A program made the position numbers and the translations under genes. From the IMG/VR virus record IMGVR_UViG_3300009149_000023, positions 9,097 to 73,096 of that record: a stretch of DNA of 64,000 nucleotides. One strand, given 5' to 3'. Shown here one piece after another: positions 7,617 to 56,034 of this stretch; positions within the stretch are counted from its first letter, which is position 1, and the number at the start of each line of letters is the position of its first letter. Source of the DNA: a virus. The notes below the pieces were generated by a model that did not search any database, was not told the DNA's origin, and saw only the letters and a list, made by a program, of their open reading frames with translations.

Positions 7617-7643
7617 GTACTACATCAATTGTTGTGTTTTTAC
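7617..7643 (-). promoter_or_regulatory. Putative phage-specific promoter GTAAAAACACAACAATTGATGTAGTAC
   Basis: 26/27 identical to 23898..23924. Intergenic, and points into the leftward baseplate operon. Confidence 0.7.
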
Positions 7644-7723
7644 ATGTGTGAGAAAAACTCTTAAAATTTAAAAATGTAGAGTACTACTTATACATATGAG
7701 TATCTTTAAAGGAGTGTTCCTAT

Positions 7724-8773
7724 ATGGCTACTATTGTTATAGACCCTACGTATACTATCTCTGCATCTTCCTCAACTGCATCTAACTTAGCAGCACCTAC
7801 AACAACAGCAGGTGCAACAACTATACATCAGCATGGAGGATTAGCTTATGTAACAAGTACATCAGCCACCACAACTAATTATGGTTATTCACTATGGACA
7901 GACGATATGGGCGGAGGTAGCCTTGCTCCTATAGATGCTGCTAATGAAGCTACCATAAAAATGCAAAGAGATATATATGACTACTACAATGAAAGAGACA
8001 TGGTTTATAAATTTATGTATGAACCAGAATGGGGACGAATGCATGAAGATGGTGCTGTTAGGTTTAACTATCATGCTTTTACAGGATGGACAGACTTAGA
8101 AGCTATAATAGACGAAAAGAATGAGATGTTAAGATTTGCTTTTTACAAGAATAGAGGATGGAAGGACGAGGAGGCTAAAGCAGATGCGAGTGTAAAAATC
8201 AATCTTGCTTATCACAGACACAACGAATGGAAAGATTTAGATTGGTATAAAGAAACAAATCATACTATGTTAATTACAGGATTGTCTGAATGCTTAGAAT
8301 TTGAAGATTGTGACGCTCTTCGTGACATGGTTGACTTTGTACTTACAAAGGTAATAACTGAGAATAGAGGGTTAAGCACAACGATGCTTTCAGTATTATA
8401 TCAAATAATGGAAAAGATGGACAAAGCATTCATAAAGGTACTCCTGTTTAAAAATTATGGTGAAGCTAGCGAGGAGATAAGAACAATTCTTGCATGCATT
8501 GTAGAAGACGCTGCTAGCCCTTTTAAAGATTCAGATAGGCTTATGTTAGGTCAAATAGGATTACAGAAATGGTTAAAGCTAAAGGAACACGCAGATAAAT
8601 ATGCAAAAGTCTATGCTCCTTATATACCAGTACAGACATGGACTAAATCACAGCTAACCTATTGCGGGACAACAGCAGGGGCGCAACAAATTACTAATAG
8701 CACAACAGTCAGAAAACCTGATGCTTTTGCTACACTGGATATAGCAAAATCTTGGTTAAAAGGAAATAACTAA
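7724..8773 (+). CDS. Hypothetical protein with Thr/Ser/Ala-rich N-terminus
   Basis: 349-aa ORF with AAGGAG SD. Confidence 0.7.
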   Translation: MATIVIDPTYTISASSSTASNLAAPTTTAGATTIHQHGGLAYVTSTSATTTNYGYSLWTDDMGGGSLAPIDAANEATIKMQRDIYDYYNERDMVYKFMYEPEWGRMHEDGAVRFNYHAFTGWTDLEAIIDEKNEMLRFAFYKNRGWKDEEAKADASVKINLAYHRHNEWKDLDWYKETNHTMLITGLSECLEFEDCDALRDMVDFVLTKVITENRGLSTTMLSVLYQIMEKMDKAFIKVLLFKNYGEASEEIRTILACIVEDAASPFKDSDRLMLGQIGLQKWLKLKEHADKYAKVYAPYIPVQTWTKSQLTYCGTTAGAQQITNSTTVRKPDAFATLDIAKSWLKGNN

Positions 8774-8777
8774 ACTA

Positions 8778-9224
8778 ATGAAAAGTCAATCAATAATCTG
8801 TAACATTTGTAAACAATGTTGCTTAAACAGCAAAGCTGTTATTAGTCACTTAGTTCATAATCATCTTACACCTGCGTCATTAATGAAAATTACTATTGAG
8901 GACGATTCCGAATTTCATGTGGTAGAGGTCACTAATTTAGATCTTGATGCTATTAACACACAAGCTAACCTTGCTACAACATTATTAAGTGGACAAAAGG
9001 CTGAAGGTAACACTTTAATAATAAATAAAGATCACGTATATACAGTAGAGGATACAGGATTAATAGTTTTGTGTTATTATCCACAAACTAATACAGCTAT
9101 TTCTTTAGACAAGAAAGATGTTCCTGTATTATTAGAATCCTTACACGCAGTTATAGCCAAAGAGAATTCTATTAGAATTCAAAAATTAGCGAGCTTTACT
9201 TCATTAGCTCGAAAGGTAGGTTGA
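8778..9224 (+). CDS. C2H2-type zinc-finger protein
   Basis: CNIC-x12-HLVHNH at the N-terminus. Confidence 0.55.
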   Translation: MKSQSIICNICKQCCLNSKAVISHLVHNHLTPASLMKITIEDDSEFHVVEVTNLDLDAINTQANLATTLLSGQKAEGNTLIINKDHVYTVEDTGLIVLCYYPQTNTAISLDKKDVPVLLESLHAVIAKENSIRIQKLASFTSLARKVG

Positions 9225-9225
9225 C

Positions 9226-9501
9226 ATGGACAAGTTTATTGGTATCATAGAAAGGCTACAATCTTCTAAAACAATAGCATTAGAAGATATTCGTAGCTTT
9301 ACAGACATTGTTGAAAATAGTTTAAGCATGGCTGTAGATTCTTTAGAAACAGCCAGAACAAGAGAAGCGATGATCTTTTCAGAATTCTTAGACAAACATT
9401 CCGAAAGAAAAATCACAATAACTGAGTTTTTAAAAACAATGAAAGTTACTAAGGATGTTAAAGCAGTATTCAGAGATTTTGTAAATGAGGTTAAAAAATG
9501 A
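9226..9501 (+). CDS. Hypothetical protein
   Basis: Abutting ORF in the operon. Confidence 0.6.
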   Translation: MDKFIGIIERLQSSKTIALEDIRSFTDIVENSLSMAVDSLETARTREAMIFSEFLDKHSERKITITEFLKTMKVTKDVKAVFRDFVNEVKK

Positions 9502-9821
9502 CTCAAGTACGTTCCTTTTTCTGCATGTTTTCAACATTTTTTCGTCTGATAGGGATAGGCATTGCTGCCTTTATTGTTCTTTATGTAATAATGAGTTCAG
9601 GTTTTAATCAATGGATGGAGGTTAACCCTTTTGATTCTCAAATGATAAACACGATATTCTGGATAAGTATTTTCAATATCATGTTTATACTCGGACCGAG
9701 CTTTTTACTAATATATGATTTGTTTTATCAAACCAATTCAGAAACGTTTGCTAAAGCACATGAGCATGCACAACAAATTGTAGAAAAAGTACTCTCAACA
9801 AAAGATGATGAAACAAAATGA
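9498..9821 (+). CDS. Two-TM membrane protein
   Basis: Two hydrophobic segments; ATGA overlap with the upstream gene. Confidence 0.65.
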   Translation: MTQVRSFFCMFSTFFRLIGIGIAAFIVLYVIMSSGFNQWMEVNPFDSQMINTIFWISIFNIMFILGPSFLLIYDLFYQTNSETFAKAHEHAQQIVEKVLSTKDDETK

Positions 9822-10555
9822 GCCTTTGGTACATATTCAGATACAGAGCAAAACGAATGTTTTGTCTTATGTTGAGAAGAATTGCCATTAATTTAAATCA
9901 GGAGGACTTAATGAGTTCACGGTACAATCACATGCTGAAAGTTGTCAGCACAAAAAACAAGCTAAGGTATTCGGTGCTTAAAGGTTTTGTAGAAGTAGTT
10001 TCTAACTACAATCCTTTTTTGTACGAGGTTGACGAAGCTTCGTGGGAAGAGATGTCTAAATATAGCACAGTGTGGGAACCTCTATTCAGAGATCATCACT
10101 CGCTTTATTTTAAAGACTTCAAACCAACAGAAGTCGAACTAAAAAATATGTATTGTGCTTATTACGGATTATGCAAAGTGCCTTACCACAAAGTAGCCTT
10201 GAGGGCAAACTTTAAGGAAAATCCATATGTACTTATTCAACAACCTATTAAGAACCTGGAAGTAGCTGCTGAACATCTTAAGACAATGGCAGCACATTTT
10301 CCTCATATTAAAGAACCTTTCAAGTGGGCAGTAGCTTCAGTTGCTTATTTCTCAGATCCTATTAAGATAATGGATATGATAAAAGCAATTAAGTCAACTA
10401 CAGTCGGCGATGCTGTGCAGCATCCTGACGCCTTGCAGAAGGCCCTGAGAAAGGGGTTTGGTGATCAAGCTGACTCTTTAATCGACTTGGTAGATAATTT
10501 TAGGATAGCACAAGAGAAATACCAAAAAGAAGAATTGGAAATGATGGTTAGTTAA
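9818..10555 (+). CDS. Hypothetical protein
   Basis: 245-aa ORF. An alternative start at 9911 sits behind GGAGG. Confidence 0.65.
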   Translation: MSLWYIFRYRAKRMFCLMLRRIAINLNQEDLMSSRYNHMLKVVSTKNKLRYSVLKGFVEVVSNYNPFLYEVDEASWEEMSKYSTVWEPLFRDHHSLYFKDFKPTEVELKNMYCAYYGLCKVPYHKVALRANFKENPYVLIQQPIKNLEVAAEHLKTMAAHFPHIKEPFKWAVASVAYFSDPIKIMDMIKAIKSTTVGDAVQHPDALQKALRKGFGDQADSLIDLVDNFRIAQEKYQKEELEMMVS

Positions 10556-10583: not shown

Positions 10584-10633
10584 ATAAAAGAGACTCTGTA
10601 CGTAAATGCGTAAAAGGAGTCTCTTTTATTTTT
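10584..10633 (+). terminator. Intrinsic terminator-like hairpin
   Basis: ATAAAAGAGACTC ... GAGTCTCTTTTAT inverted repeat followed by a T run. Confidence 0.7.
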
Positions 10634-10655: not shown

Positions 10656-10671
10656 AAAACACAACAAGTGA
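10656..10671 (+). promoter_or_regulatory. Putative phage-specific promoter AAAACACAACAAGTGA
   Basis: Copy of the recurring motif, between a terminator and the neck/RNAP operon. Confidence 0.65.
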
Positions 10672-10701
10672 TTGGAATAGTTCATGGAGGTATACTTAAT
10701 T

Positions 10702-11268
10702 ATGAGTAAGAAAAGAGGAAAAAGTACAAAGGTCGCAAGTTGGAATTTTCTTGTAGCTAAAGATCGGATTAGAAAAGCTAAACCTTTAGTCTACAAACAA
10801 TACGAGAAAGAACTAGTTGAGATAGCAAATGTGACTCGAGCACTATTTGAAAATGCTATCCTCAAGGACATGTATACTAAGCTTGCAAAACAGTTCTTTG
10901 AGCAGATTAAAGGGACTAGAACTTTAGAGCAAGCAGGCGAAATTATTAATGAATTTCTTACACTAGCAAATGAGACTTCAAAATCATCAGCTTTATTCGA
11001 AATCGACGAACAAATCAAAGATGTCGAAAAACAAGTTACCTCAATGACAGACGAAGGCAAAACTCAGGAAGAAATTGATGCTTATGTTGAAGAGCACCTA
11101 ACTGCTCCTTTACAAAAGGTATATGAAGATTTAGAATCTGATGGTTTAGTTGAGGATGGCATATTAGCTGATGCTGAAAAAATACTTCAAGAAATTGAAG
11201 ACGAGGAAAACCAAGCCGAGGGGGAAATAGATAATGGTAACACTGACGAGTCTGTATCGCTACGCTAA
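10702..11268 (+). CDS. Hypothetical helical protein with acidic C-terminus
   Basis: Start reassigned to MSKKRG behind GGAGG. Confidence 0.7.
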   Translation: MSKKRGKSTKVASWNFLVAKDRIRKAKPLVYKQYEKELVEIANVTRALFENAILKDMYTKLAKQFFEQIKGTRTLEQAGEIINEFLTLANETSKSSALFEIDEQIKDVEKQVTSMTDEGKTQEEIDAYVEEHLTAPLQKVYEDLESDGLVEDGILADAEKILQEIEDEENQAEGEIDNGNTDESVSLR

Positions 11269-11953
11269 ACAAAAATTAGGACTACCTTATGTAGAATTTG
11301 AAAAGTCAGATGATGAGCTTTTCGAAATACTTAAAGAAACAACCATGCCTACTTTTAATCGTTACTTCCCTCATGTTAATAATATGGCACTTGACACACG
11401 TTTAGCTGAAAACTTAACAGATATTCCAAATGAGTATTGGTTAAGAGATCCAGACAATCAAGAAATATTTTCAGTTAGCAAAGTGTTAGATGTATATAAC
11501 ACGTTAATTGTTCATGGTTATCCTATTGATGTAGCATTCAGACAGTTTGATGATATTCCTAACTGGGCGTTAAGTGTAGATAGAGCTGAAACAGCTTATC
11601 TGTATTCACCTGCTAGAATGACTTTTTCTTTTATGCCTCCAAACAAAATCAGAGTAATGCCTTCTAATTCAATCTCGGGCGGAGTGTTTACTGTGCAATA
11701 TGAAAGAGGTCATAAAGACGATTTAAGCACACTTCAGAATCAATACGAGCATTATCTTAAAGAACTTTTTCTAGCTGATTGCAAACTTGAAATAGGTAAC
11801 ATAAGAAAGAAGTATCAGAACTTCACAACACCTTTTGGAGAGATTCCTCTGAATGGTGATGATCTTATTTCTCAAGGAACTGCAGAAAGAGAAAAGTTAT
11901 ATTCTGAGTTTGAAGAAAAAGCTCTGCCGAATATTCTAATCAAAGTCGGATAA
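11234..11953 (+). CDS. Neck / head-completion protein, T4 gp13-like
   Basis: KLGLPYVEFE..DDEL at the N-terminus; GNIRKKY...PFGEIPLNGDDL..G..E at the C-terminus. Confidence 0.75.
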   Translation: MVTLTSLYRYAKQKLGLPYVEFEKSDDELFEILKETTMPTFNRYFPHVNNMALDTRLAENLTDIPNEYWLRDPDNQEIFSVSKVLDVYNTLIVHGYPIDVAFRQFDDIPNWALSVDRAETAYLYSPARMTFSFMPPNKIRVMPSNSISGGVFTVQYERGHKDDLSTLQNQYEHYLKELFLADCKLEIGNIRKKYQNFTTPFGEIPLNGDDLISQGTAEREKLYSEFEEKALPNILIKVG

Positions 11954-11977
11954 GTACTAACAGGAGGATTACGCATA

Positions 11978-12625
11978 ATGACGTTTGCATTTGATATTGA
12001 TGGAGTTATTGTTGATGTTAATAAAACAGTGCAGCAATATCTCAGAAAAACACATAACCTAACATACAAACAATTAGGTGTACAATATATCTGGCCTAAG
12101 CGTTTGTCTGAGTTTGAAGGTGTATTTGATGAGATGATTCGTCTTGATATAGAAAGGTTCATCTTTCAATCTTTCGATTATATACAAGACAGCATTTACC
12201 GTACAGCCATCCTAAGCTCAATGAAGACTTTAGGCAAACAAGGACATAAAATTTACATAATTACCAATAGGCCCATTTATACAAAAGATGTTACACGACA
12301 GTGCTTTCCTGAAGATGTAGCTGAACATATAGAAGATTTCTTATTCTTTGAAGAAGGCATAGATACAGAAGGTAATGAAGACCTTTTTAAAATTAAAAGA
12401 TGTCAATCGGTTAATGTTGACGTTTTAATAGATGATCGTGCTGATAATATAAAAGCTTTCGCAGAAACTACTAAGCATGGATTTTGGTTTGTCGATGAGA
12501 TTCCTGAGGCAGATAGAATCAATGAAATTACAAAGTTAAACTCTGTTATTGTGTGTGACAGCAGTAACTTAAAGAAAAAACTCAGAGAGGTAATATACAA
12601 TGTCAACTCGTCTGAAAGACACTGA
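11978..12625 (+). CDS. HAD-superfamily 5'(3')-nucleotidase-like hydrolase
   Basis: FDIDGV, IITNR, K and LIDDR HAD motifs I-IV. Confidence 0.85.
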   Translation: MTFAFDIDGVIVDVNKTVQQYLRKTHNLTYKQLGVQYIWPKRLSEFEGVFDEMIRLDIERFIFQSFDYIQDSIYRTAILSSMKTLGKQGHKIYIITNRPIYTKDVTRQCFPEDVAEHIEDFLFFEEGIDTEGNEDLFKIKRCQSVNVDVLIDDRADNIKAFAETTKHGFWFVDEIPEADRINEITKLNSVIVCDSSNLKKKLREVIYNVNSSERH

Positions 12626-15473
12626 AAAATTCTGTGCCAAACTGATCCCCGTTACCTCTCCTTCTGTATTTAGAAAATTAGGAGAAACTGTAACCTTTGA
12701 TGAGAAAGGTATTCTTTCTTATGAGATCTTTGGTACTAATGAGAATGAAAGAAGGGTAAGACACTCTTTCATTAATCTAAAGAATGTTCAAGTTCTTCAT
12801 CCTATTCTATACGATAAACTGAAAATTAATAGTAAGTTAAAAAACATTCTATATAATAAAGGTTCTTACATTATTAAGGGTGGCGAGCTTATTGCTGACC
12901 CAAATGGAGATACAGGCATATCATTTTTTAAGTCTATTGTAGGAAGATATAAGCCTGAATCAGCTGCTATTCAAAAAGTCTTTGATATTATTAAAGTATC
13001 ACCTTTTGCTTTCTTAAATAAGATTATTGTGATACCTCCTGCATTCAGAGAGACTGGAAAAGAATTAGTTTATAGAACCGTAACGGATCTCAATAAAGCA
13101 TATACTTCTTTAATTCGTGCAGCTAATGCAATTGCGGCTTCGGGAGACGCTGATGCTTACTCGGCTGAAATACAAAGGCTCATGGAAAATCTATATATTG
13201 CTATTAAAGCACAAATTGGTTCCAAAGACGGAATATCAAGATCAAATATTCAAGGAAAACGTTTAGACTTTTCAGGTCGCGCTGTTATTACAATGGACCT
13301 GTCCTTAAAAATAGATGAATGTATTCTTCCTTTAGTTATAGCATTAAAAATGTTTGAACCTTTCATAATTGCTGAGTTTAAGAAACAGCCCGGACGTAAG
13401 CCAGGCGACTATTTAATTTATGATATGTTACAAGATGTTTATGATAATCTTGATGCCAGTGACTATTATGAAGAAGTTAAGAAAGTAATAGATTCAATTG
13501 CCGCAACACGCCTTGTGCTGCTTAATCGTGCACCTTCTCTACATAAACTATCACTGCTTGCATTCAAACCGCGCATAACCTTAGATAAGGTTATCAAACT
13601 AAATCCTTTTATACTTGATGGATACAATGCTGACTTTGATGGTGACCAGATGGGTGTATACAGTCCTTTGACAAGACAAGGACAAGAGGAAGCTAAAAAA
13701 CTTCTACCTTCCAATAACTTATTTAATGTAGCTTCAAGAAAGATATCAACACAGCTTTCTGAAAACTTTGCGTTATACTTATATTATAGTACTGCATGGG
13801 AGTCAACTTCTGCACCCGCAAGTAAGTTAGACACTAATAAAAAGAATCTTGATTTCTTTAGACGTGTTACACTTAAAGGAGAAACAGCTACCGTAGGCAG
13901 ATGGTTATTAACTCTTGCTATTAGAGAAGCTGTCTTGGATGATAAGTATCCTATAATTAAGCAGCCTATAAATAAATCAATATTTAGTCAAATGTTATCT
14001 GATATCTTTATGAAGTATGGTAAGAATGCTTTGATAGGTGTGCTGTATAAAGTTAGAGATTTGACCATGGAATATGGTTCATTACTACCAGACGTACTTC
14101 CTGAAATAAAACTTAGTGACACTGCTAAGAAAGAGCTCCTTCCTAAAATAGAAGAATTAAAACATACTCCTGATGTATGGGATGATATTGTAAGTATAGT
14201 AAAAAGAGATATAAGAAATCATCAAAAGAACTTATACATTCTTCTTGAATCTAAAACAACTAAGCTTGACTGGAATAAGATTACACAGGCGTTAGTTGCT
14301 AAAGGCTATACTCAAACACTTTCAGGTGAGAACAAATTAATGACATCAAGTCAGCTCGATGGTTTAACACAAGAAGAACTTTTAGTGGATACTTCTAATG
14401 CTAGAAGAGGTATTGTTGACAGAGCTCTTATGACAGGTAAGCCTGGTTATTTAACCAGAAAGCTAATTTTTGCATTAGGCTCAACATTACTACATCCTAC
14501 ATTAAAAGATTGTGGAACTAGCAGAACACTAAAACTAAGAGTAAACAAGAATCATGTTAATAGCTTAGTAGGAAGATATGCTTTATTAAATGGTAAGCTA
14601 GTTTTACTTGAGAAAGCTGATGCTGAAAAATTAGTAGGAAGTACAATCAATGTAAGGTCTCCTGCCTACTGTAAGAGTAAACAAATATGCCATACTTGTT
14701 ATGGCATGCTAAGCAAATATGTGAACTCAAAGAACATAGGTATTATAGCTTCTCAAGCTATAGGCGAGTTAGGTACTCAGATGATTATGAGAACCTTCCA
14801 TGTAGATACTCTTGTTACTACAGCTAAAAAGACATTACCTACTATTAAAGAATTTAAGTTAACAGATGCAGGTTATGTAGCGATGCAGCCTGTGGTAATA
14901 CATTTAAAGAAAGACGATATAGAAGAAAGGTCTGACTTTAGTATAGTAACAAAAGCTATTACTGTCAACGATGCACGATACGATTTTGTATTTACTGTTT
15001 CCTTATTAGCTGTCGAAGACTCAAGAGAAACAGCAACTACACTAGAGTTAGCATTTCCTAAAGGAGCTATTCCTCTATTCGGAGGCTCAACAGGACATCT
15101 AAGGGATAAGATATCTGAAGTTGATGGTTTATTTGAATTAAGTCAGAAACTAAAAATTAGAGATGCCACAGCATTACTAGAAAGACTATTTGATGAATAT
15201 TATACGCTTGGTAAACTAGATCATGTACATTTTGAATTGTTTATAGGTGCTATGATGAGAAGTAAAGCTAAGCCTGAAATTCCTTTCAGATTATCAACTG
15301 ATACAGCTTACCAATTAGTGCCTATCTCAAAAGTAGCACTTTATGAAAGTCCTCAACTTGCTTTTATATTCCAAAGACAGTCAGATGCTATTATTGCAGG
15401 ACTATATCAAGATACTCTTGAAGAAGACCCAGAAGAACGAACCAAATCCGATTTAGAAGAATATTACTACTAG
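12600..15473 (+). CDS. rpoC: Phage multi-subunit RNA polymerase beta' subunit (unsplit, compact)
   Basis: GKRLDFSGRAVI, LNRAPSLH, NADFDGDQM (13626-13646), bridge helix ARRGIVDRALMTGKPGYLTRKL, DCGT/RSP..C..C..CYG zinc site, trigger loop QAIGELGTQMIMRTFH. Confidence 0.95.
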   Translation: MSTRLKDTEKFCAKLIPVTSPSVFRKLGETVTFDEKGILSYEIFGTNENERRVRHSFINLKNVQVLHPILYDKLKINSKLKNILYNKGSYIIKGGELIADPNGDTGISFFKSIVGRYKPESAAIQKVFDIIKVSPFAFLNKIIVIPPAFRETGKELVYRTVTDLNKAYTSLIRAANAIAASGDADAYSAEIQRLMENLYIAIKAQIGSKDGISRSNIQGKRLDFSGRAVITMDLSLKIDECILPLVIALKMFEPFIIAEFKKQPGRKPGDYLIYDMLQDVYDNLDASDYYEEVKKVIDSIAATRLVLLNRAPSLHKLSLLAFKPRITLDKVIKLNPFILDGYNADFDGDQMGVYSPLTRQGQEEAKKLLPSNNLFNVASRKISTQLSENFALYLYYSTAWESTSAPASKLDTNKKNLDFFRRVTLKGETATVGRWLLTLAIREAVLDDKYPIIKQPINKSIFSQMLSDIFMKYGKNALIGVLYKVRDLTMEYGSLLPDVLPEIKLSDTAKKELLPKIEELKHTPDVWDDIVSIVKRDIRNHQKNLYILLESKTTKLDWNKITQALVAKGYTQTLSGENKLMTSSQLDGLTQEELLVDTSNARRGIVDRALMTGKPGYLTRKLIFALGSTLLHPTLKDCGTSRTLKLRVNKNHVNSLVGRYALLNGKLVLLEKADAEKLVGSTINVRSPAYCKSKQICHTCYGMLSKYVNSKNIGIIASQAIGELGTQMIMRTFHVDTLVTTAKKTLPTIKEFKLTDAGYVAMQPVVIHLKKDDIEERSDFSIVTKAITVNDARYDFVFTVSLLAVEDSRETATTLELAFPKGAIPLFGGSTGHLRDKISEVDGLFELSQKLKIRDATALLERLFDEYYTLGKLDHVHFELFIGAMMRSKAKPEIPFRLSTDTAYQLVPISKVALYESPQLAFIFQRQSDAIIAGLYQDTLEEDPEERTKSDLEEYYY

Positions 15474-15482
15474 GAGGCAGCT

Positions 15483-23897: not shown

Positions 23898-23924
23898 GTA
23901 AAAACACAACAATTGAAGTAGTAC
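23898..23924 (+). promoter_or_regulatory. Putative phage-specific promoter GTAAAAACACAACAATTGAAGTAGTAC
   Basis: Near-identical to 7617..7643; precedes the fibre operon. Confidence 0.7.
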
Positions 23925-23942
23925 ACTTTAGTACTACTTTTT
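23916..23942 (+). terminator. Hairpin AAGTAGTAC-N6-GTACTACTT plus T run
   Basis: Perfect 9-bp inverted repeat overlapping the 3' end of the promoter motif. Confidence 0.5.
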
Positions 23943-24380: not shown

Positions 24381-24400
24381 TATAAAGGAGGAATACCTCG

Positions 24401-26539: not shown

Positions 26540-26550
26540 GAGTAAGATAG

Positions 26551-33661: not shown

Positions 33662-33679
33662 TTTATTGTAAGTTTGTTT

Positions 33680-33694
33680 AAACACAACAATCGA
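33680..33694 (+). promoter_or_regulatory. Putative phage-specific promoter AAACACAACAATCGA
   Basis: Intergenic copy of the motif. Confidence 0.65.
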
Positions 33695-33730
33695 TAGATA
33701 CTTAACTTTCTTCAGGAGGAATACTTAATC

Positions 33731-35812: not shown

Positions 35813-35837
35813 GCCAATTTCCTAAGGAGGAATACAA

Positions 35838-40728: not shown

Positions 40729-40811
40729 ATGGATTTAGTACTAGAACCAGGAGACTGATTCTTAGTTCTTTTTACTTTAAAATTTCTAATACGTTTATAG
40801 TACAGTTCTAT

Positions 40812-40826
40812 AAACACACTAATTGA
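40812..40826 (+). promoter_or_regulatory. Variant promoter motif AAACACACTAATTGA
   Basis: Two mismatches to AAACACAACAATTGA; intergenic, ahead of the MCP transcript. Confidence 0.5.
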
Positions 40827-40845
40827 AGAGATGGAGGAATACTTA

Positions 40846-42935: not shown

Positions 42936-42972
42936 AAGAAGGCTCAGTTTCGGCTGAGCCTTCTTTTTTTTT
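42936..42972 (+). terminator. Rho-independent terminator
   Basis: AAGAAGGCTCAG-TTTCGG-CTGAGCCTTCTT followed by a T run. Confidence 0.9.
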
Positions 42973-43005
42973 GCCTTTTCACTATTTTAGGGAGAACATA
43001 ATTGT

Positions 43006-43887: not shown

Positions 43888-43914
43888 AAACCTTAATAGA
43901 TCGAGCATTTTCTG

Positions 43915-43930
43915 AAACACAACAATTAGA
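43915..43930 (+). promoter_or_regulatory. Putative phage-specific promoter AAACACAACAATTAGA
   Basis: Intergenic copy of the motif. Confidence 0.65.
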
Positions 43931-44734: not shown

Positions 44735-44796
44735 ACTACTTTAAAGGTAGTTAAGAATAGTTACTTTAATTAATTTTTTCAAGGAGGTTTACACCT

Positions 44797-45570
44797 ATGA
44801 ACGGACCCTTACCAAAGATGGATCTTCCTCAGTACGACGTTATCACCCCGCAGACTAACAAAACATTTACCCTGAGGACAATGACAGTTGCGGAAGAAAT
44901 GAAGCTGAAAGGCTCATTAATCACACCAGAGCAAATTGTTTCACACGTCACAGCAGTGCTTTATGACTGTATTGTTAACAAGCCTGAAGACATCAAAGAC
45001 ATCAAAGACTTCATGACCAAAGTAACAACTCACGACCGGCAAGCACTATTGTTCGGCTTATTTCATGTTACTCATGGCGAAATTCAAAAGTATCCTGTTG
45101 AGAGTTGTAAAGGTTGCGGCAAGTCCTACGAGTATAACTTCCCTACTGATTCTTTATGTAAGATTACTCAGTATGAGGGCGAAGAAGATATACTTACTAT
45201 GTTAGTAGAAGTTAAGCTGCCTATCTCTAAGCTATCTTGCTTTATTAAGCAGCCAACAATTAGAGATGAAATCGTTGCAGCTAAAACTGCTGTACAGATT
45301 CCACATGACAAAGAATTCTTGGATGAATTAATCTTTGTAGAGAAATTTACAAAAGGTGCTAAAGAGTTTTCTGAGATCATGGAGAAGCTTAGTTTGTTCA
45401 AAGCTCTGCCTTCTAAGGACAGGCGTGTACTTTGGCAGAAGTATACTGAACTGTTCGGACAGTATCAAGTTAAGGTTTCCGGAGAAGCTGTTTGTCCTTT
45501 CTGTAAGACCGAGATCGAGATAAATATCGATTTCATGGAAATCTTTTTTCGCATGGTTTATGAGCAGTGA
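44797..45570 (+). CDS. Baseplate hub assembly / tail chaperone, T4 gp26-like
   Basis: LP.Y.V..P......LR.MTV.EE..L, D...LL, two CxxC ribbons (CKGC, CPFC) and a C-terminal FF. Confidence 0.7.
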   Translation: MNGPLPKMDLPQYDVITPQTNKTFTLRTMTVAEEMKLKGSLITPEQIVSHVTAVLYDCIVNKPEDIKDIKDFMTKVTTHDRQALLFGLFHVTHGEIQKYPVESCKGCGKSYEYNFPTDSLCKITQYEGEEDILTMLVEVKLPISKLSCFIKQPTIRDEIVAAKTAVQIPHDKEFLDELIFVEKFTKGAKEFSEIMEKLSLFKALPSKDRRVLWQKYTELFGQYQVKVSGEAVCPFCKTEIEINIDFMEIFFRMVYEQ

Positions 45571-45760
45571 GCCTAGTGACTTTCTCGAGATAGTTTATAA
45601 AAACATCGCTCAGTACCAATTCCTTTCAAAGGCGCCTTTCTCAGACATTTTTTCAATGCCCGCAAGGTATTTACCTATCGCAGTGAAAGAACTAGGCGAG
45701 AAGACGCGAGAACTATTGAAGGCACAGGCTTCAATGTTTCTTCCTATTAAGACTGATTAG
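45560..45760 (+). CDS. Small tail chaperone-like partner of the gp26-like gene
   Basis: Position, plus SDIFSMP.R pattern typical of tail-chaperone C-domains. Confidence 0.5.
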   Translation: MSSEPSDFLEIVYKNIAQYQFLSKAPFSDIFSMPARYLPIAVKELGEKTRELLKAQASMFLPIKTD

Positions 45761-45774
45761 AGGTAGCAAATAAA

Positions 45775-47142: not shown

Positions 47143-47146
47143 AATT

Positions 47147-48817: not shown

Positions 48818-50040
48818 TGAAAGTACCACAAGCGCCTTTTGTAGGAGCACCTGTATATGGTTTACCTCCTATGTCTTGGGAGATTCTAGATACCAAGTGG
48901 GAGAAAGTAGTACTGAATGGATTTTTCATAGTTAAAATAACCCCTGTAAAGATAGACATCAAGTGGGACGACGATAAAGCTTCTGGTGTTTTAACGCCAC
49001 GTGCTGTAACTACTAAACCACATGATGAAATTCTAGGCAAAATATCAAGCGACTTAGGTGTATCTGGTTCTTCTTTTTATTTCGCAACACAAGCTAGAAG
49101 TTTAATGGAAACTATGGAAAATAACTTTGGAGAAAGTTTTTACCAACAAGCAGCAGATGCAGGTTCTACTATGGGAACATATTTTAGCCAGTTTAGGCAA
49201 CTTCATGGAGGCACAGGAACAAAAGAGCAATTTAGCAAATTTGTAGGACAAATTGCAGACTCCGCTGGATCGAGTCTCCTCAAAAACATAGCATCAGGTC
49301 TTGTAACTGCAGCAGATAAGGCTATTAGTGGGATCGGAAAAGCAGGGGTTGGAGATATAGCAAATGTGCTGACAGGCGGGCGTGTTGATTTGCCTAGAGT
49401 ATGGACAGGGTCAAGTTGGAGTTTCGATAGCACGCTTAACTTTAAGTTTATAGCTCCCTCAGCTAACCAACAAGATGTAATTGATCATGTTGTAACGCCC
49501 ATCCATATCTTAAAGTATTTAGCAGCTGCTATTTCAAGAGATGGTGGTTTGATTTACAATGAGCCTCCTTTCCTAGAAGTAGAAATCCCTTTCCTTTATT
49601 ATAACCCAACATGCGGTTTTCGTTCTTTAAATATAGAGCATGGCGGTGATAATGGTACCTTTAGTTTTGATCAATTGCCTTTAATAACAAATGCATCAGT
49701 GCAATTTGAATCATTGAGACTTGTGCAACCTACTTTAATAGATAAAGACCCACGTGGTTCTTACGATATATCTACTAAAAAGTCATTTGCTTATAGTTCA
49801 GGGAAAGGCACAGCTGGCGGTAATGGTACATTACGTCCAGGAAGAAAAGCAGAAAACTTAAATGATGTTTTCCAGGACCCTAGTACTAGCTCATCCGCAG
49901 GAAAGCGCTCTGCTCCTGAAGGCGCTGACACTGAACCTCAAAATATTGCTAACTTTGCAGCACCTAATATAAGTAAACCAAGTGCTAATCAAACTATTGC
50001 TGCGCAGAGAGACGTTGCTGACAAATTGAAAGGTTTCTAA
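48817..50040 (+). CDS. Baseplate / tail-tube initiator-like protein (gp48-like, tentative)
   Basis: LP.VW.GS....S..FKF.AP and PPFLEVEIP...SLNIEHG pattern; adjacent to the tape measure. Confidence 0.45.
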   Translation: MKVPQAPFVGAPVYGLPPMSWEILDTKWEKVVLNGFFIVKITPVKIDIKWDDDKASGVLTPRAVTTKPHDEILGKISSDLGVSGSSFYFATQARSLMETMENNFGESFYQQAADAGSTMGTYFSQFRQLHGGTGTKEQFSKFVGQIADSAGSSLLKNIASGLVTAADKAISGIGKAGVGDIANVLTGGRVDLPRVWTGSSWSFDSTLNFKFIAPSANQQDVIDHVVTPIHILKYLAAAISRDGGLIYNEPPFLEVEIPFLYYNPTCGFRSLNIEHGGDNGTFSFDQLPLITNASVQFESLRLVQPTLIDKDPRGSYDISTKKSFAYSSGKGTAGGNGTLRPGRKAENLNDVFQDPSTSSSAGKRSAPEGADTEPQNIANFAAPNISKPSANQTIAAQRDVADKLKGF

Positions 50041-50051
50041 GGAGATAAAGT

Positions 50052-53000
50052 ATGAATGATAAAGATCTAATTATTCTACAAGGTTTGCTTGAAGAACTAA
50101 GAACGCAGACCCGTACGGAAATTGCTCAAAAAGTAGAAACTCTTCTTGTTGAAGCTAACAAAGATTCCTTTACCAAAAAAGACGTAAATGAATTAAAGAA
50201 AGTACTTAAAGATATTGAGAAGTCTGCTGATATAGGTAATGCTGACTTAGCTGAAACAGTTACCGACGTAAAGCGGGTCCTTGAGAAAAGTTCCCCTAAA
50301 CTTGATACATTAAATAAAACAGTTAGAGGCACAACAGGCGCAATTGATAAGTCTTCTAGAAGTATATCAGGCGCAGTAAAAGAATCAGCTCGAGAGTCTG
50401 CAGGATTAATATCAACTCCTATTAGACTACTAGACAAGACAATGAAGATGTCTGCTAATGCAGTTAGTTCTTTAGCTTTAGCTTCTACCTCTACTGTCAG
50501 AGGAGCTAATGCAAGATTAGGTGTAAGAATAGGATCCGACTTAACTAGACTTAGAGAAAGCCTTTTAGAAAGAGATGACTTCCATAGAGATAGCGAAGAG
50601 ACTTTAGTTGAAAGCATAGCTTTTGCTATTCCTTATAGACTTAAACAGTTAGCTGAGATAAGTGGAAACTTTGCTTCGTCCTTTGCTGGAAAGATGACGG
50701 ATGCCTTTTCAACAGGCACTGGGATACAGTTTGGTACTTTAATTGATGAAGTAAAGAAGATAAACCCTGTATTGACGGGATTAGGTAAACTTGTAGGCGC
50801 AGTGTTTTCTCCTATAGGATCACTATTTAAGTTACTACACGGTGTACTGTCTTCCACCTTTAAGAAAACATTCAGTTACTTAATTTCTGGTATTGGAGGT
50901 TTATTTTCTCCTATTACTAATAGATTCACTAAAGAGGGAAGAGAAAAGCTAGACGAGTACGCATTTCAGCATAAGCAGATGCGCACACTAGAAAAGATTG
51001 AAGCTAATACTAAAGAAGCAGCTAAAGGAAAAGGCGGCAGTATACTAAGTGCGCCTTTTAGAATGATTAGGTGGTTAGCTAAACTTCCTTTAAATATGAT
51101 TACAGGCGGGCTAGCTACTTTAGCTAATCCTGCTGCTTTAATAAGCTTACTTGCTAAGTCTTTAGGTTTCCTAGCTGTAGGCGGTTTAGGCGCAGCTGTA
51201 CTATTACCTCCACAACAAAGACGACAAGTTGCAGCAGCTATGTTTAAATATCTGCCTAGTGCTATTAAACCAGGCTTCCTTAAAGCTTTCGGTGCAGCAG
51301 GCGCAGGTTTATTTGGAGATCAAGATGTAAATGATTGGGAGAAGGACGCTGCAGAAGATGCTAAGACTAGTGATAGACAAAAAATTACTGATGCATATTA
51401 TGAAAAAATGCTTGATGGAATTGGTAATGTTAAATCAGGTGTAGGCTCACTAAAAGATAAGATGGCAAAGCCTTTAGGTACCATCGCAGACTATAGTAAA
51501 CGAGGCGCTAAGAATACACAAGACATGGCACTGGACCTTTCTACCTCTTTTAAGAAAGGTGGTGTGTTCGGTGTATTAGGCTTCCTTGCTAAACAATGGC
51601 TTAAATTTGAATTCTTTAAGATAGGTTTAGCTTTAAAAGGATTAGTATGGTTAATGAATCCTTTTAGATGGGTTAAGGTGTTTACTAAAACACTAGCTGG
51701 AGCGCTAACAAGTGTTACTAGAGGCATTGGTGGTATGCTAGGCAATGCTTTTAAGAAAACTACGGATCTTGTACTGTGGCCCTTCAAGAAAGCACTCGCT
51801 ATACCTAAAGCGCTAGGTAAAGGTATCTTAGGTATGTTCGGAGTTAAGTTTGACAAAGATATGGAAAAGAAGAAACAATCTTTGTTTGGCAAGTTATTCT
51901 CTTTCGGTAAGAAAGAAGAAGAAAAGAAGAAAGGCTTCTGGGGAAGTCTATTTCCTGATAAGAAAAAAGAGAAAGAAAATATCATAGGAACTATCACTAC
52001 TAAAGGGAAAGAGTTTTGGAATAAGTTCTTCCCTGGTAAAAAAGAAGTTGAGAAACAGAAACAAGGCTTGTTCGGTACTTTACTTGGCAAAGGTAAAAAA
52101 TTATGGGATGATTTCTTTCCTGATAAGAAAGAAGCTGCAAAGAAGAAAGATGATCTATTCGGTACTATATTTAGTAAAGGAAAGGATTTATTCAAAGGCC
52201 TCTTTGCTGACAAGAAGGGTGCTGCTGAAAAAGTTGTAAAGCAGCAAACTGCTGCGGGGAAAACATCTGCAGCTACTGGTACAATAGAGCCTCCTAAAAA
52301 GAACACTAGCAAAGTGATGAGTTACAAAGAGTGGCAGGCTTTATCGAAAAAAGAACAAGATCTATCTAACGATTTTAGTGGCCAAACGTCTCACCTAACT
52401 GCAGAGAAAGTTACAGGCACAATAAAGCTGCCTGAAAAGAAAACACTTAAGCAGAAGGCGCAAGAAAAGCTTAACTCAGTAAAACAATCATGGGAAAACT
52501 TTTATAAAAGTAATGAAGAAGCGGTTGAACAAACAACAGCTACCGTAGATGATTTAAACGCAAAGCAAGAGACTAAGTCTAAGAAACTATTTAATGTTTT
52601 TAAGACAAATCTTGCTAAGCTATCTGGTGGCATGTTTGACTTTTGGAATTTTGCACAAGACGGGCAAGGTAACATAATAGACAAAGTAATACTAAGTTCT
52701 GATAAACATCTTGAACAAGCAAATAAAGCAAATAAACAAGCTGAAGAACTTTTAAGCACAATAGATGTTGACCTTTCTCAATTTCAAGTATCTCAAGAAA
52801 AGTTAACAACACAGGCTGAAGAGCAGACTGGAACTATAACGGATAGCATCTGGAAGTTTGCTAGAAAAGGATTAGAGCAAGCTGATGGTTTAAGAAAGAA
52901 GTTGCTTGGACAAGAAACCAGAATACTAGAAATTGATGGTGAGCAAGTTGCAGCGGCTTCTGAAGAAAGAAAGAAATCCCTTGAAGAAATTGTCATGGGT

Positions 53001-54800
53001 TCGGAAAAGAATTTAGGAAGTAAAATAGACTTAATAGCTGCCGGCAAAGGTTTCTTAACAGGAACAGCTGTTACGGGTAGCCCTGTACTTGGTTTAATAA
53101 ATGCAATTAGATCGAGTCAAAAATCTTCAGCAGGAGACATAACAACTTCCGTAGGAGCATTAGAGCAACGTATGATGACTGCTAATGATTTACTACAGGG
53201 TATATTAGGAGCTATTAGAGAGTCAGGTAGTGTAAGTGTTGCTGATAAAGCAGTAGCAGACTTCGCTAATGCAACTTCTTGGAACTTAATAGAAAAGCTT
53301 GATGAGGCTGTAGTTCCTGAAGTTAAGGAAGTTGCAGAAAAGAAAGAACCTTCTAAGATAGAAGCATTAGGTGCACTGTCTCCTGCCGAAGAAAAGAAAG
53401 AGGCAACTACATTTGCTGCTACCGTAAGTGCAAGTGAAAGTCTTAAAGCAATTAGAAGTGCTTTGTTAGGAGAAGGAGAAGCAGGCAAAGGTATAGTTGG
53501 CATGTTAGGAGGGTTATTCCATCGCAAGGATAAAGAGGAATCTTCCGGTCTTCTTGGAGGCTTATTAGCAGGCGTAACAAACGCTGTTTCTGGATTAACC
53601 TCTACTTTTACCGGTGCTGTTGCCGGAGGTCTTTCCGGGCTACTTGCAGGGCTTCTTCCGTGGGTTACAGGTACAGCACTTCCTGCTATAATGGGTGTCC
53701 TTACAGGAGCAGCTACAATGGCTCTTATTACAGCTGCAGTGGTCCTGGCTCTAAAAATCGGTACTGACTTAGGTACTGCTTTGCGAAAGATGCGAGAGTA
53801 TAGTAGAGTCTTGAAAGAAGAAGAATTTAATGTTGACCAAAAAAGAGGTATTTTAGAACTTGCTCAAGATATACAGTCTGGTAAAAAACAATTTGCATCT
53901 GAGAAAGAAAAAAGGGATGCAACTGCTAGTATAGTATTCTCAGCACAAGAAGCGCTTAAAACACAGAAAGAGGCTCAGGAAAAACTTGCGAGTATGCAAC
54001 AAGACTACTCAAAAATGGGTTTCTTAGAAAAAAAGAAACAGGCAGTAGCAATGGCTGGACTACAAGCTAGAGTAGACTCAATGAAAACAGAAGGTAAAAT
54101 GTCTGAGCAAGCAATTGCACTGTTAACAGCGCCTAAGGAGCATCTTGAAAAACTGGGGATTAAGTATGCAAAGAACGTACAAACACCAGAATCAATACTT
54201 GAAGCGAATAAGTCGTATACACAATTTATGCAAAACAAGAAAGACGGTAAACAGCAGACAGATAGCTATTTCTCAACGTTTACTCCCGAGAAACTTGCGA
54301 CTTATGGGAAGGCAATTGAAGCACACAAAGCTGTAGCTGATCAGTATATTGCGAGCAAACCAGACTTTACACACTTAAAAAATCCTACAGGTATTCTTAA
54401 TACAGGGGCTGACTTTAAGCCATTTAAGTCAGGAGAGGAAGAAGACAAATGGTGGAATGATGCCTACCTTGAAAGGATGAAGAAAAGAGAAGAAACTGGT
54501 ATTATTAAACAGGGGGCAGAAACTTGGGAAGCTCCTACATTTGAAGAAGAACGTATGGCAGCTGAAGAAGCAGCAAGACAAAAGAAAATGAAGGATGAAG
54601 AAAAGGGTAGAAATTCACTAGGAAAAGAACTTGCCGCAGGTGCAAAAACAACAGCTAGTACTTTAGCCGCAGCCTTTAACAGCTTTACACAGTCATCCTC
54701 TACAAGTTCAAATGTTTCTAATAATAGTAACGTTACACATAACAATCCAATTATGGCATATGACAATGACAGAGTCCGAGCACTTCATGGGAGAGGATAA
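50052..54800 (+). CDS. Tape measure-like protein
   Basis: 1582 aa, helical, with G/A/L-rich hydrophobic blocks and periodic W/F repeats, in the tail cluster. Confidence 0.65.
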   Translation: MNDKDLIILQGLLEELRTQTRTEIAQKVETLLVEANKDSFTKKDVNELKKVLKDIEKSADIGNADLAETVTDVKRVLEKSSPKLDTLNKTVRGTTGAIDKSSRSISGAVKESARESAGLISTPIRLLDKTMKMSANAVSSLALASTSTVRGANARLGVRIGSDLTRLRESLLERDDFHRDSEETLVESIAFAIPYRLKQLAEISGNFASSFAGKMTDAFSTGTGIQFGTLIDEVKKINPVLTGLGKLVGAVFSPIGSLFKLLHGVLSSTFKKTFSYLISGIGGLFSPITNRFTKEGREKLDEYAFQHKQMRTLEKIEANTKEAAKGKGGSILSAPFRMIRWLAKLPLNMITGGLATLANPAALISLLAKSLGFLAVGGLGAAVLLPPQQRRQVAAAMFKYLPSAIKPGFLKAFGAAGAGLFGDQDVNDWEKDAAEDAKTSDRQKITDAYYEKMLDGIGNVKSGVGSLKDKMAKPLGTIADYSKRGAKNTQDMALDLSTSFKKGGVFGVLGFLAKQWLKFEFFKIGLALKGLVWLMNPFRWVKVFTKTLAGALTSVTRGIGGMLGNAFKKTTDLVLWPFKKALAIPKALGKGILGMFGVKFDKDMEKKKQSLFGKLFSFGKKEEEKKKGFWGSLFPDKKKEKENIIGTITTKGKEFWNKFFPGKKEVEKQKQGLFGTLLGKGKKLWDDFFPDKKEAAKKKDDLFGTIFSKGKDLFKGLFADKKGAAEKVVKQQTAAGKTSAATGTIEPPKKNTSKVMSYKEWQALSKKEQDLSNDFSGQTSHLTAEKVTGTIKLPEKKTLKQKAQEKLNSVKQSWENFYKSNEEAVEQTTATVDDLNAKQETKSKKLFNVFKTNLAKLSGGMFDFWNFAQDGQGNIIDKVILSSDKHLEQANKANKQAEELLSTIDVDLSQFQVSQEKLTTQAEEQTGTITDSIWKFARKGLEQADGLRKKLLGQETRILEIDGEQVAAASEERKKSLEEIVMGSEKNLGSKIDLIAAGKGFLTGTAVTGSPVLGLINAIRSSQKSSAGDITTSVGALEQRMMTANDLLQGILGAIRESGSVSVADKAVADFANATSWNLIEKLDEAVVPEVKEVAEKKEPSKIEALGALSPAEEKKEATTFAATVSASESLKAIRSALLGEGEAGKGIVGMLGGLFHRKDKEESSGLLGGLLAGVTNAVSGLTSTFTGAVAGGLSGLLAGLLPWVTGTALPAIMGVLTGAATMALITAAVVLALKIGTDLGTALRKMREYSRVLKEEEFNVDQKRGILELAQDIQSGKKQFASEKEKRDATASIVFSAQEALKTQKEAQEKLASMQQDYSKMGFLEKKKQAVAMAGLQARVDSMKTEGKMSEQAIALLTAPKEHLEKLGIKYAKNVQTPESILEANKSYTQFMQNKKDGKQQTDSYFSTFTPEKLATYGKAIEAHKAVADQYIASKPDFTHLKNPTGILNTGADFKPFKSGEEEDKWWNDAYLERMKKREETGIIKQGAETWEAPTFEEERMAAEEAARQKKMKDEEKGRNSLGKELAAGAKTTASTLAAAFNSFTQSSSTSSNVSNNSNVTHNNPIMAYDNDRVRALHGRG

Positions 54801-56005
54801 TGAGCACTGGATCTTTAGTTAGGCACTATTATCAATACTTAGAAGAATACATTACTATGACGCATAGTACGTATAGTAAAAGCGGCAATGCGGTTTATTG
54901 TGATTACTATTCGTTAGATAAGGATGCTAGTGTATGGGATGAAAACTATGTTGCTAGTTACCAAGACATTGGTGACCTCAGTGGTTTAAGATGGAATAAA
55001 GTTTCGTTGTTTCCTGTATTCTTTGGAGAAGGTGCACCTGCTTCTTTAACTGGTAATGAGAAAGGTACTACAAGAGAAGAAAGTATTCGTCCTACAGTAA
55101 TGGTTCCTAGAACAGCTGACTTAGAACCTAAGCTTCAAGACTACATAGTCTTTACAAACCTTCAAGGTGAAACATTAGTTTATCAAGTTGTTAACCTTGA
55201 TTACAGTATGCCTAACAATCGTGCGCATTTTAAGCTTCAGTTATTTCCTTCGCATCACGAAATAGCAGACATTGAAGCTAAGGTAAGTAGCAGGTATGTG
55301 TATAATGATGTTTTAGACATTATTAATACGCAAGACATCGGTATTCCTTTATTCAATATAACAAACGTTATGTTCGCAGTTGATCATTATATTAGAACAA
55401 CTTATTTCTTCAGAAGGTTAGATTGTGTGTTAGAAAACAATTTATGCATAGTTGATTTAAACTACTATCTAAATTGGCTATCAGACAACTTCCCTACAAG
55501 CAAGATTGAATTATACAACTTGGCGCAGGAAGAATTTAAAGTAGCTCCTGCATTTGCAGATTCTGCTTTTGGTTTATTGTTTGATTCTTCCTATGTTGCT
55601 GCATCTTATTCATTGCTTGGTGCAAACCTTGAAGAGACTAATATGTCCAATACATTATTTCATAGATGGAAACCTTTAGTAGGTATCGCTATAAAAGGTG
55701 GATCAGCTGGAGGTATTGGAACAGCTGACTTATTCGCAACTATGTATATGGGAACAGCTTATGTTGATGTTGTTCTCGCTCTTAACAATCTCTTAACTTA
55801 TCGTCAGGGCGGTGTTTATACTCCTTCAACTAGCACAGTAGCTTTACCAGCTATGATTAACCAACTAGTTACTTTAGAGGAAGCAGGTACACTTCCTTCA
55901 AACTATCAAAAGCAATCCACAAATCTCGTTGAAGCAGTTTTTGAAATTGCTTTCTTTAAACAAGCTTGTGAATTTGCTATTACCAACAAAATTACCGGTC
56001 TATAA
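54800..56005 (+). CDS. Virion structural protein (head-closure/neck candidate)
   Basis: YYSLD...S.WD....Y..IG.LSGLRW.K...FPV and P...DYI.F patterns; TAATG coupling. Confidence 0.4.
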   Translation: MSTGSLVRHYYQYLEEYITMTHSTYSKSGNAVYCDYYSLDKDASVWDENYVASYQDIGDLSGLRWNKVSLFPVFFGEGAPASLTGNEKGTTREESIRPTVMVPRTADLEPKLQDYIVFTNLQGETLVYQVVNLDYSMPNNRAHFKLQLFPSHHEIADIEAKVSSRYVYNDVLDIINTQDIGIPLFNITNVMFAVDHYIRTTYFFRRLDCVLENNLCIVDLNYYLNWLSDNFPTSKIELYNLAQEEFKVAPAFADSAFGLLFDSSYVAASYSLLGANLEETNMSNTLFHRWKPLVGIAIKGGSAGGIGTADLFATMYMGTAYVDVVLALNNLLTYRQGGVYTPSTSTVALPAMINQLVTLEEAGTLPSNYQKQSTNLVEAVFEIAFFKQACEFAITNKITGL

Positions 56006-56017
56006 CCAATCCTTCTT

Positions 56018-56034
56018 AAAACACAAAAATTAGA
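56018..56034 (+). promoter_or_regulatory. Putative phage-specific promoter AAAACACAAAAATTAGA
   Basis: One mismatch to the 43915 copy; intergenic. Confidence 0.55.

Follow-up and report, generated by a model that had tools for sequence, protein, structure and literature searches.

The 64,000-nt stretch of viral DNA analyzed here (the window) corresponds to bases 9097 to 73096 of a 73,096-nt virus record, itself a fragment of a probably much larger genome, and the subject of the analysis is a short intergenic motif that recurs in the window ahead of operons of virion genes and of RNA polymerase (RNAP) genes. Gene calls were heuristic, were made in this analysis, and numbered 81 over the whole contig, leaving 2,738 of its 73,096 nt non-coding (approximately 96% coding). 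The contig carries genes for a T4-type portal, a Gp23-type capsid protein (PF07068 match in Pfam, E 8.8e-43), a prohead protease, a large terminase, a baseplate hub and wedge, and several 'virion structural protein' homologs. The best named relatives of the capsid protein are those of Listeria LPJP1 and Bacillus AR9/PBS1 (25 to 28% identity), and a megablast search with 12 kb against deposited phages found no close DNA relative. Also encoded are unsplit RNAP beta' and beta subunits and a protein similar to gp226 of phage AR9 (Table 1). The two RNAP subunits are each at least 800 aa long, the beta' subunit has the NADxDGD motif (as NADFDGD, with N343 to D349 invariant in the family alignment), and the capsid protein matches PF07068. 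By these sequence features the contig appears to belong to the mReC type, with unsplit beta'/beta (multimeric-RNAP-encoding Caudovirales; Weinheimer and Aylward 2020, PMC7481178), with which it also shares a metagenomic origin.

A first-pass annotation had listed six copies of the motif and a variant at 40812, and all seven were found where it had placed them; the copies at 7617-7643 (-) and 23898-23924 (+) share exactly the 26 of 27 nt that it gave. When AAACACAACAATT was searched with at most one mismatch, six matches were obtained (7627-7639 on the minus strand and 10657, 23902, 33680, 43915, and 56019 on the plus strand), compared to 0.32 expected (standard deviation, 0.66), and none of 100 shuffles reached six. 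Only two further matches had two mismatches, the 40812 variant and one at 13367 (-), which lies antisense inside the beta' gene and looks like chance. At up to three mismatches no enrichment was measured (47 found versus 50.9 expected), and the signal is therefore confined to a small set of near-exact copies. Despite the high coding density of the contig, all seven copies were intergenic and had the same orientation as the next gene, as that annotation had reported. Counted from the conserved G/A that follows the motif, the start codon lay 21 to 55 nt away (n = 7), close to the 20 to 50 nt proposed earlier; all of these starts were supported by a Shine-Dalgarno (SD) sequence, and the leader of the 10657 site was counted to the SD-supported ATG at 10702, passing over a first ATG at 10684. 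A 17-nt position weight matrix gave the seven sites 20.1 to 25.4 bits and the next best match 15.7 bits, a gap that is partly circular because the matrix was trained on those seven sites. A de novo count of 8-mers, which was independent of this training, found AAACACAA in 6 of 26 upstream regions, the two contig strands together holding it only seven times (binomial p 6e-10, with no correction for how many 8-mers were counted), and the motif was the top non-SD word in the count. When viral contigs were searched with the exact 18-nt motif, the five matches obtained all lay in unrelated contexts, looked like chance, and were set aside.

The motif was also compared to known bacterial and T4 promoter elements, neither of which it had been thought to represent, and the counts bear this out. 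Between window positions 7000 and 26999, sigma-70-like matches were not enriched (58 versus 77.2 expected), and among the matches listed none was sense-oriented at the three motif sites inside this segment; the other four sites were judged by eye. T4 late promoters have TATAAATA approximately 10 nt before the start and are read by host RNAP with gp55/gp33. The element described here resembles them as a short, single-element late promoter candidate, and the two phages share a Gp23-type capsid and a Gp20-type portal, but TATAAATA occurred at chance frequency (8 versus 7.6 expected) and was absent from all seven motif sites.

The seven sites head operons on both strands, with site 1 on the minus strand and sites 2 to 7 on the plus strand, and the claim that these are largely structural operons was upheld. 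Site 1 lies in a 147-nt divergent intergenic gap, its predicted leader reaching the start at 7576 after 50 nt, and heads a minus-strand operon of approximately 21 genes, among them the gp226-like gene and one that is baseplate-wedge-like. The operon behind site 2 (10702-19334) comprises a 188-aa open reading frame (ORF), a virion-structural-protein homolog, a HAD/NT5C-like gene, and the beta' and beta genes; the terminator-like hairpin ahead of this site was overlooked by a simple terminator scanner owing to its long loop. Site 3 heads 23970-32937, where a 136-aa ORF precedes genes for large proteins of Ig-like, fibre or decoration-like character, and the hairpin at its predicted start could be a 5' stabilizing stem-loop or an attenuator. 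Site 4 is the sole site with C replacing T ahead of the G. Behind site 5, the variant, lie two small genes and the gene for the Gp23-type major capsid protein (41477-42910), and site 6 heads 43958-56005, which encodes the baseplate hub, the large terminase, virion proteins, and a 1,582-aa protein. Site 7 overlaps a palindrome, TAGATATATATCTA.

Table 1. Coordinates of the motif sites, RNAP-related genes, and hairpins (window positions unless a contig position is given)
Feature	Position	Strand	Details
gp226-like gene, 454 aa	G000:C1:8247-9611	-	N-terminal 171 codons are window 1..515
Site 1	7624..7640	-	AAAACACAACAATTGAT, 25.0 bits
Intrinsic-terminator-like hairpin	10584..10633	+	-22.4 kcal/mol (RNAfold), U-run; site 2 lies 24 nt after it
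Site 2	10656..10672	+	AAAACACAACAAGTGAT
Unsplit RNAP beta', 957 aa	12600..15473	+	Pfam Rpb1 domains 2, 5
Unsplit RNAP beta, 1283 aa	15483..19334	+	Pfam Rpb2 domains 3, 6, 7
Site 3	23901..23917	+	AAAACACAACAATTGAA
10-bp hairpin	23915..23940	+	-11.3 kcal/mol; begins at predicted +1 of site 3; followed by UUUUU
Site 4	33679..33695	+	TAAACACAACAATCGAT; heads small operon 33731-35750
Site 5 (variant)	40811..40827	+	TAAACACACTAATTGAA
Terminator hairpin	42936..42974	+	-21.0 kcal/mol, U9; past capsid gene, ends site 5 unit
Site 6	43914..43930	+	GAAACACAACAATTAGA
Site 7	56018..56034	+	AAAACACAAAAATTAGA; heads 56070-61433, first gene P2-I-like baseplate protein

The motif is conserved beyond the window. 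The closest relatives fall into two lineages, one represented by locus L117 and by G001, a record of 27.7 kb with 99.9% identity to L117, and the other by L118, with capsid proteins approximately 72 to 73% identical to that of the window. In these, AACACA(A/C)TAA(T/A)TGA was kept at six further sites, three of them syntenic with window sites. Five copies of the form (C/G/T)(A/T)AACACA(A/C)TAA(T/A)TGA are found in G001/L117, on the gene strand and directly before an SD sequence and ATG, and L118, the third lineage, has GAACACAATAATTGAA ahead of the small first gene of the capsid operon. Site 5 is syntenic with copies in both lineages, and the L117 site at 12801 is the syntenic counterpart of site 6. 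When the three capsid-operon leaders were aligned with MAFFT, the motif and the SD sequence were conserved and nothing else was, the flanks having diverged. Over the three lineages together, AACA was invariant (13 of 13 sites) and was followed after 7 nt by T-G/A at 12 of the 13. In a more distant relative with a capsid protein 42% identical to that of the window (L002/L122, 11871-17974), a different repeated motif, gTATAAATAAT(C/T)TC(A/C)CAAAAAA, which is T4-late-like or AT-rich, precedes at least six small genes downstream of the capsid gene.

A candidate for the protein that reads the motif is encoded on the same contig. The sole PDB match of the 454-aa protein was 7s01_A, a subunit of AR9's non-virion RNAP (nvRNAP) with the length of gp226 (464 aa), at E 3.6e-7 over residues 92 to 407. 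A tblastn search led to the AR9 gene annotated 'non-virion RNAP subunit' (the gp226 locus; E 3.9e-10), and in PHROGs the protein matched phrog_25005, 'RNA polymerase' (E 2.5e-7). The stretch best conserved with gp226 is the sigma2-like/2.1bis region, in which W208, Y210, L211, and K212 are kept. As judged from these matches, the 454-aa protein is a homolog of AR9 gp226, a sigma-like promoter-specificity subunit. The next best match to the weight matrix mentioned above, AAAACAAACTAATTGAA, is a sense copy at window positions -753 to -737 (-) (G000:C1:8343-8359), 109 nt ahead of the next gene and still inside the gp226-like gene, at its 3' end, and it may be an internal promoter. The same minus-strand operon, upstream of the window, also contains a gene for a 246-aa protein (L111:4189-4929, minus strand) that resembles an exonuclease (phrog_1706, 'CRISPR/Cas system associated', E 4.6e-23).

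As described in the parts of the AR9 literature drawn on here, late promoters of this phage have the form AACA-(6N)-T-A/G, with the purine as +1, and 17 of them have other distances or one or two nonconsensus bases (PMC5312081). They are read by the nvRNAP only when the sigma-like gp226 is present, and the core does not bind promoters (PMC7598289); gp226 reads the template-strand 3'-UUGU-5' at -11 to -8 as well as the non-template AANA (PMC7598289, PMC9209446). Set beside this, our results suggest that the motif is, with reasonable probability, a late promoter of a phage multisubunit RNAP that contains the gp226-like subunit, with the start at the purine after the conserved T. We infer this function and start site, as well as the reader and its joining to a core enzyme, from sequence. 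On this model, nAACACA(A/C)(C/T)AATTGA would be the core late-gene promoter of the phage's own transcription system, and a beta/beta'-type phage RNAP would be directed to it by the 454-aa, sigma-analogous subunit. If the system works as in AR9, the specificity subunit would hold on to the invariant AACA while the DNA melts, and transcription would start at the G/A after the conserved T, 8 to 9 nt downstream of AACA and one base further than in AR9. The resulting leaders, 21 to 55 nt long, would carry a strong GGAGG ribosome-binding site, and the promoter would drive the virion-gene operons on both strands in addition to the operon with beta'/beta. In vitro, beta/beta' would probably not suffice unless the gp226-like subunit were added, given that promoters are not bound by the AR9 core (PMC7598289).

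The first-pass annotation had already noted that the AACA core recalls AR9 late promoters and that the downstream spacing does not fit, and the 13 sites agree with it on both counts. The likenesses to AR9/PBS2 late promoters (PMC5312081, PMC5449584, PMC9209446) are the invariant AACA approximately 10 nt before a T-purine at which transcription would start and the position ahead of virion genes; to these can be added the encoded gp226 homolog, the distantly related capsid protein, and, in a relative of the window (G002, described below), a second, AT-rich motif class. The differences are a spacer of 7 rather than 6 nt, a consensus of 15 nt rather than 4 + 2, RNAP subunits that are unsplit and bacterial-like rather than divided into four or five polypeptides as in the AR9/phiKZ type, and a proline at the residue aligned with the uracil-sensing Val206. 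Because spacing, consensus length, and enzyme architecture differ, the motif is, by these sequence comparisons and strictly speaking, outside the promoter class of AR9. The phiKZ nvRNAP with gp68 provides another comparison: as far as the genes alone indicate, both systems have a multisubunit phage RNAP, a sigma-like fifth subunit, and host-independent late transcription, but the phiKZ late-promoter signal is different and minimal (TATG at the start site). No similarity of the 454-aa protein to gp68 was detected, the AR9 chain being its only PDB match.

Several observations weigh against a gp226-directed phage promoter. AR9 spacing, AACA-(6N)-T-A/G, was found at none of the 13 sites. The identity between the 454-aa protein and gp226 is modest (26% over 312 aa by pairwise BLASTP), and in this 26%-identity alignment AR9 Val206, which is critical for uracil reading by gp226, is replaced by Pro and Ile207 by Phe; with Val206 replaced, the detailed chemistry of recognition may differ from that in AR9. 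A profile built from seven gp226-like sequences, mostly G002-like members, missed 7s01_A in PDB at E values up to 1, and hhalign with the gp226-like family gave a probability of 52.5% (E 1.4e-4). The window polymerase is unsplit and in sequence resembles bacterial beta' more than it does the AR9 or phiKZ enzymes, and no AR9 or phiKZ chain was among the best 60 of its 123 PDB matches. Both the gp226-like gene and the beta'/beta operon lie downstream of the motif itself, and therefore an extra start-up promoter or a packaged enzyme would be needed; none was identified. Finally, in the more distant relatives G002 to G004, which the count covered while leaving out L017 and L029, the exact motif was no more frequent than a reversed-pattern control (12 versus 10, 9 versus 13, and 3 versus 7).

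Which core enzyme the gp226-like protein would join was approached through related loci. The window beta' is of the clade-A type (closest relative, 42% identical); the beta subunit, used as a single query against viral contigs, found no relative, and it matches the set-A beta of G002 over 959 aa. G002 (254,910 nt; capsid protein 37% identical) has two beta'/beta sets, at 196166-202232 and 236006-244058 (L093-L105). Its set A adjoins a gp226-like gene and homologs of the window minus-strand structural genes, and the window enzyme is of this set-A type; the G002 set-A beta' gene is interrupted by a 295-aa homing-endonuclease gene whose product is 35 to 39% identical to AR9 homing endonucleases. 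The 73-kb fragment studied here carries one RNAP set, but two beta' loci were found in each of the six large related records (G002 to G007), and a second polymerase is therefore likely to be encoded on the unsampled part of the genome. A FastTree phylogeny (284 columns) placed the window beta' and G002 set A with the virion RNAP (vRNAP) beta'N of AR9 at a support of 0.66, from which no conclusion was drawn, and BLAST comparisons to AR9 gave mixed signals on whether the window polymerase is of the virion or the non-virion type.

The distribution of motifs and gp226-like genes can be read in two ways. Set-A operons carry an AACA-type motif of their own in L003, L007, L016, L029, L036, and the window, and the gp226-like gene lies behind an AT-rich motif in L003, L008, and L046 and behind a variant of it in L029, though not in L007 or G002. 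Because of these two patterns and the weak tree placement, the data suggest that the set-A enzyme is a late one that is perhaps packaged, and that the gp226-like factor joins a different core, as in AR9. The opposite view, that the factor pairs with set A, derives from gene linkage, since beta' has a gp226-like gene no more than 10 kb away at 6 of 12 clade-A loci and at none of 49 clade-B loci (nor at any of 19 unclassified ones), and from the 2 of 12 inspected clade-B loci that have an AACA-type motif before the set-B operon; none of these 12 has the AT-rich pattern searched for. The core that reads the motif could thus be the clade-A beta'/beta of the window, or it could be a second polymerase, of clade B. 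As the motif heads the in-window beta/beta' operon and relatives carry a second RNAP, the reading enzyme may be other than that of the window. The earlier proposal that the motif is the recognition element of the phage-encoded RNAP is accordingly supported to the extent that sequence allows: a phage-encoded reader gains from the gp226 homolog, though the in-window beta/beta' may not be that reader.

We weighed three other explanations, each of which fits the placement of the motif and the gene content less well than a promoter for the phage's own RNAP. It is unlikely, in our estimation, that the motif is a promoter read by host RNAP with an alternative host sigma factor or with a phage-encoded or redirected sigma factor or appropriator comparable to T4 gp55/gp33. 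The phage polymerase is a predicted reader, and the 73 kb at hand cover just a part of what is probably a far larger genome, so a sigma gene could lie elsewhere. In addition, a 119-aa STAS-domain protein of the anti-sigma-factor-antagonist type (23524-23883, plus strand; PF01740, E 1.9e-17) is encoded just upstream of site 3; it may act on host sigma-factor partner-switching and hints at such manipulation. No -35/-10 architecture was found at or near the sites, however, with sigma-70-like matches below chance and TATAAATA at chance, and no sigma-70-family domain was detected when 49 products were compared to Pfam and 49 to PHROGs (jointly 79 of the 81 gene calls). The phage instead encodes its own beta'/beta and a gp226-type specificity subunit, and the invariant AACA matches the one known class of gp226-dependent promoters. 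To our knowledge, the motif fits no Bacillus sigma B, F, G, H, or W consensus, which also counts against a host enzyme.

That the motif is the binding site of a late activator or repressor of the phage, beside a weak or unrecognized core promoter, has only a small chance of being correct. A highly conserved, strictly oriented 15-nt element at a roughly fixed distance from the gene would suit an operator or activator site, and the perfect palindrome overlapped by site 7 is typical of dimeric regulators, but the motif itself is neither palindromic nor repeated. Moreover, no other conservation was seen between the motif and the SD sequence in three lineages, leaving no separate core promoter visible, and leaders as short as 21 nt have no space for one downstream. 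An action on RNA, as a processing site, 5'-end stabilizer, or translational element in polycistronic transcripts, would account for the motif being always sense and upstream of a strong SD sequence, and a hairpin does follow site 3 and leader pairing is possible at site 1. We nevertheless regard this as very improbable. The hairpins are not conserved among sites, and what is conserved is primary sequence, with no covarying structure apparent by eye. Site 1 has neither an upstream co-oriented gene nor another recognizable promoter in its divergent gap and site 2 follows a strong terminator, and both placements argue for initiation rather than an RNA element.

A comparable promoter organization was found in a more distant relative. 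De novo word counts in G002 gave two classes of upstream motifs, TTAGAACAAAA and cTATATATATTAAT. For the TTAGAACAAAA class, the word TAGAACA was intergenic in 26 of 68 occurrences, 24 of these co-oriented with the next gene, and it stood mostly before larger genes; for the cTATATATATTAAT..TGA class, TATATATTA was intergenic in 30 of 51 occurrences, 27 of them co-oriented, mostly before small genes. The two classes resemble, respectively, the late (AACA) and early (AAATATATATTAT-6N-G) consensus sequences of AR9. Candidate early-promoter words in the window (ACATAAT, TTGACATAAT, and ATATATAT, the last at three places in the contig) have too few copies to be judged.

In the literature drawn on here, promoters have been mapped for few phage multisubunit RNAPs, those named being phiKZ, phiR1-37, and AR9. 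Our literature searches, whose scope did not extend to the supplementary data of the mReC paper, found no promoter description for unsplit mReC-type enzymes. In the main text of that paper (PMC7481178), none of the words 'promoter', 'virion', 'AR9', and 'phiKZ' is used, and a second RNAP set, a gp226-like subunit, and promoter motifs, all three treated here, are absent from it. A long, specific candidate promoter, the sigma-like protein that probably reads it, and one core enzyme are all found on this contig; the pair can be tested directly in vitro and is a candidate module for orthogonal expression. To judge from the link to gp226, recognition of the AACA type may predate the uracil-DNA Bacillus phages and extend beyond them, and the two-polymerase strategy appears to extend to this metagenomic clade, given its presence in all six large relatives. 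It is possible, though we would not count on it, that mReC-type phages as a group use an AR9-like program with two polymerases, AT-rich early and AACA late promoters, and a gp226-type subunit; since the uracil-sensing valine is replaced in this lineage, template-strand AACA recognition may here work on ordinary thymine DNA. If so, the system would provide a host-orthogonal pair of multisubunit RNAP and promoter that is compact, with three genes, and has a long, highly specific 15-nt promoter, and it would link the split RNAPs of jumbo phages to deep-branching unsplit ones.

Other features were observed near these genes and sites. The HAD/NT5C-like gene of the site 2 operon, of the 5'(3')-deoxyribonucleotidase type (11978-12625, plus strand), overlaps the start of beta'; in the AR9 annotation a 5'(3')-deoxyribonucleotidase, gp150, lies near the virion beta' gene, no direct similarity between it and the window gene was detected, and the latter may be relevant to nucleotide-pool or DNA-base changes. 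The perfect palindrome TAGATATATATCTA, with a shared 14-mer AGATATATATCTAC, occurs in two intergenic regions, at 3253-3266 (-), where it precedes a 598-aa gene leading to the gp226-like gene, and at 56031-56045 (+), where it abuts site 7. It could be an operator, or else belong to a second promoter class, early and AT-rich, of the kind seen in AR9 and G002. The word TTGACATAAT is present twice in one 181-nt intergenic region (62735-62744 and 62847-62856), and a similar word, TTGTTACATAAT, lies at 531 (-), just before the gp226-like gene. A direct repeat of approximately 35 nt, ATCCAGGACATAACAAATACATCTGGAAATCTTAA, at about 61442-61476 and at 62700-62734, flanks a 399-aa gene (61497-62696) and may mark the insertion of a cassette or the repetition of a terminator or regulatory hairpin.

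At 35806-35830 and 42966-42990, strong terminators are followed by TTTGCC(A/T)(A/T)TT(C/T)C and then by a gene without an AACA-type site; these genes, including the portal block, would therefore require read-through or an unrecognized signal. The best sigma-70-like match between 7000 and 26999 (9221-9248, plus strand; TTGACA-16-TATCAT with TG, 11 of 12 positions) is at the junction of two genes within a plus-strand block (7724-10555) that lacks an AACA-type site and is preceded by TTTACA-17-TAAAAT at 7639-7667; both of these matches may be host-RNAP promoters. An auxiliary gene of the polyamine pathway, encoding S-adenosylmethionine decarboxylase, is located at 23022-23411 (+) (PF02675, E 8.5e-36).

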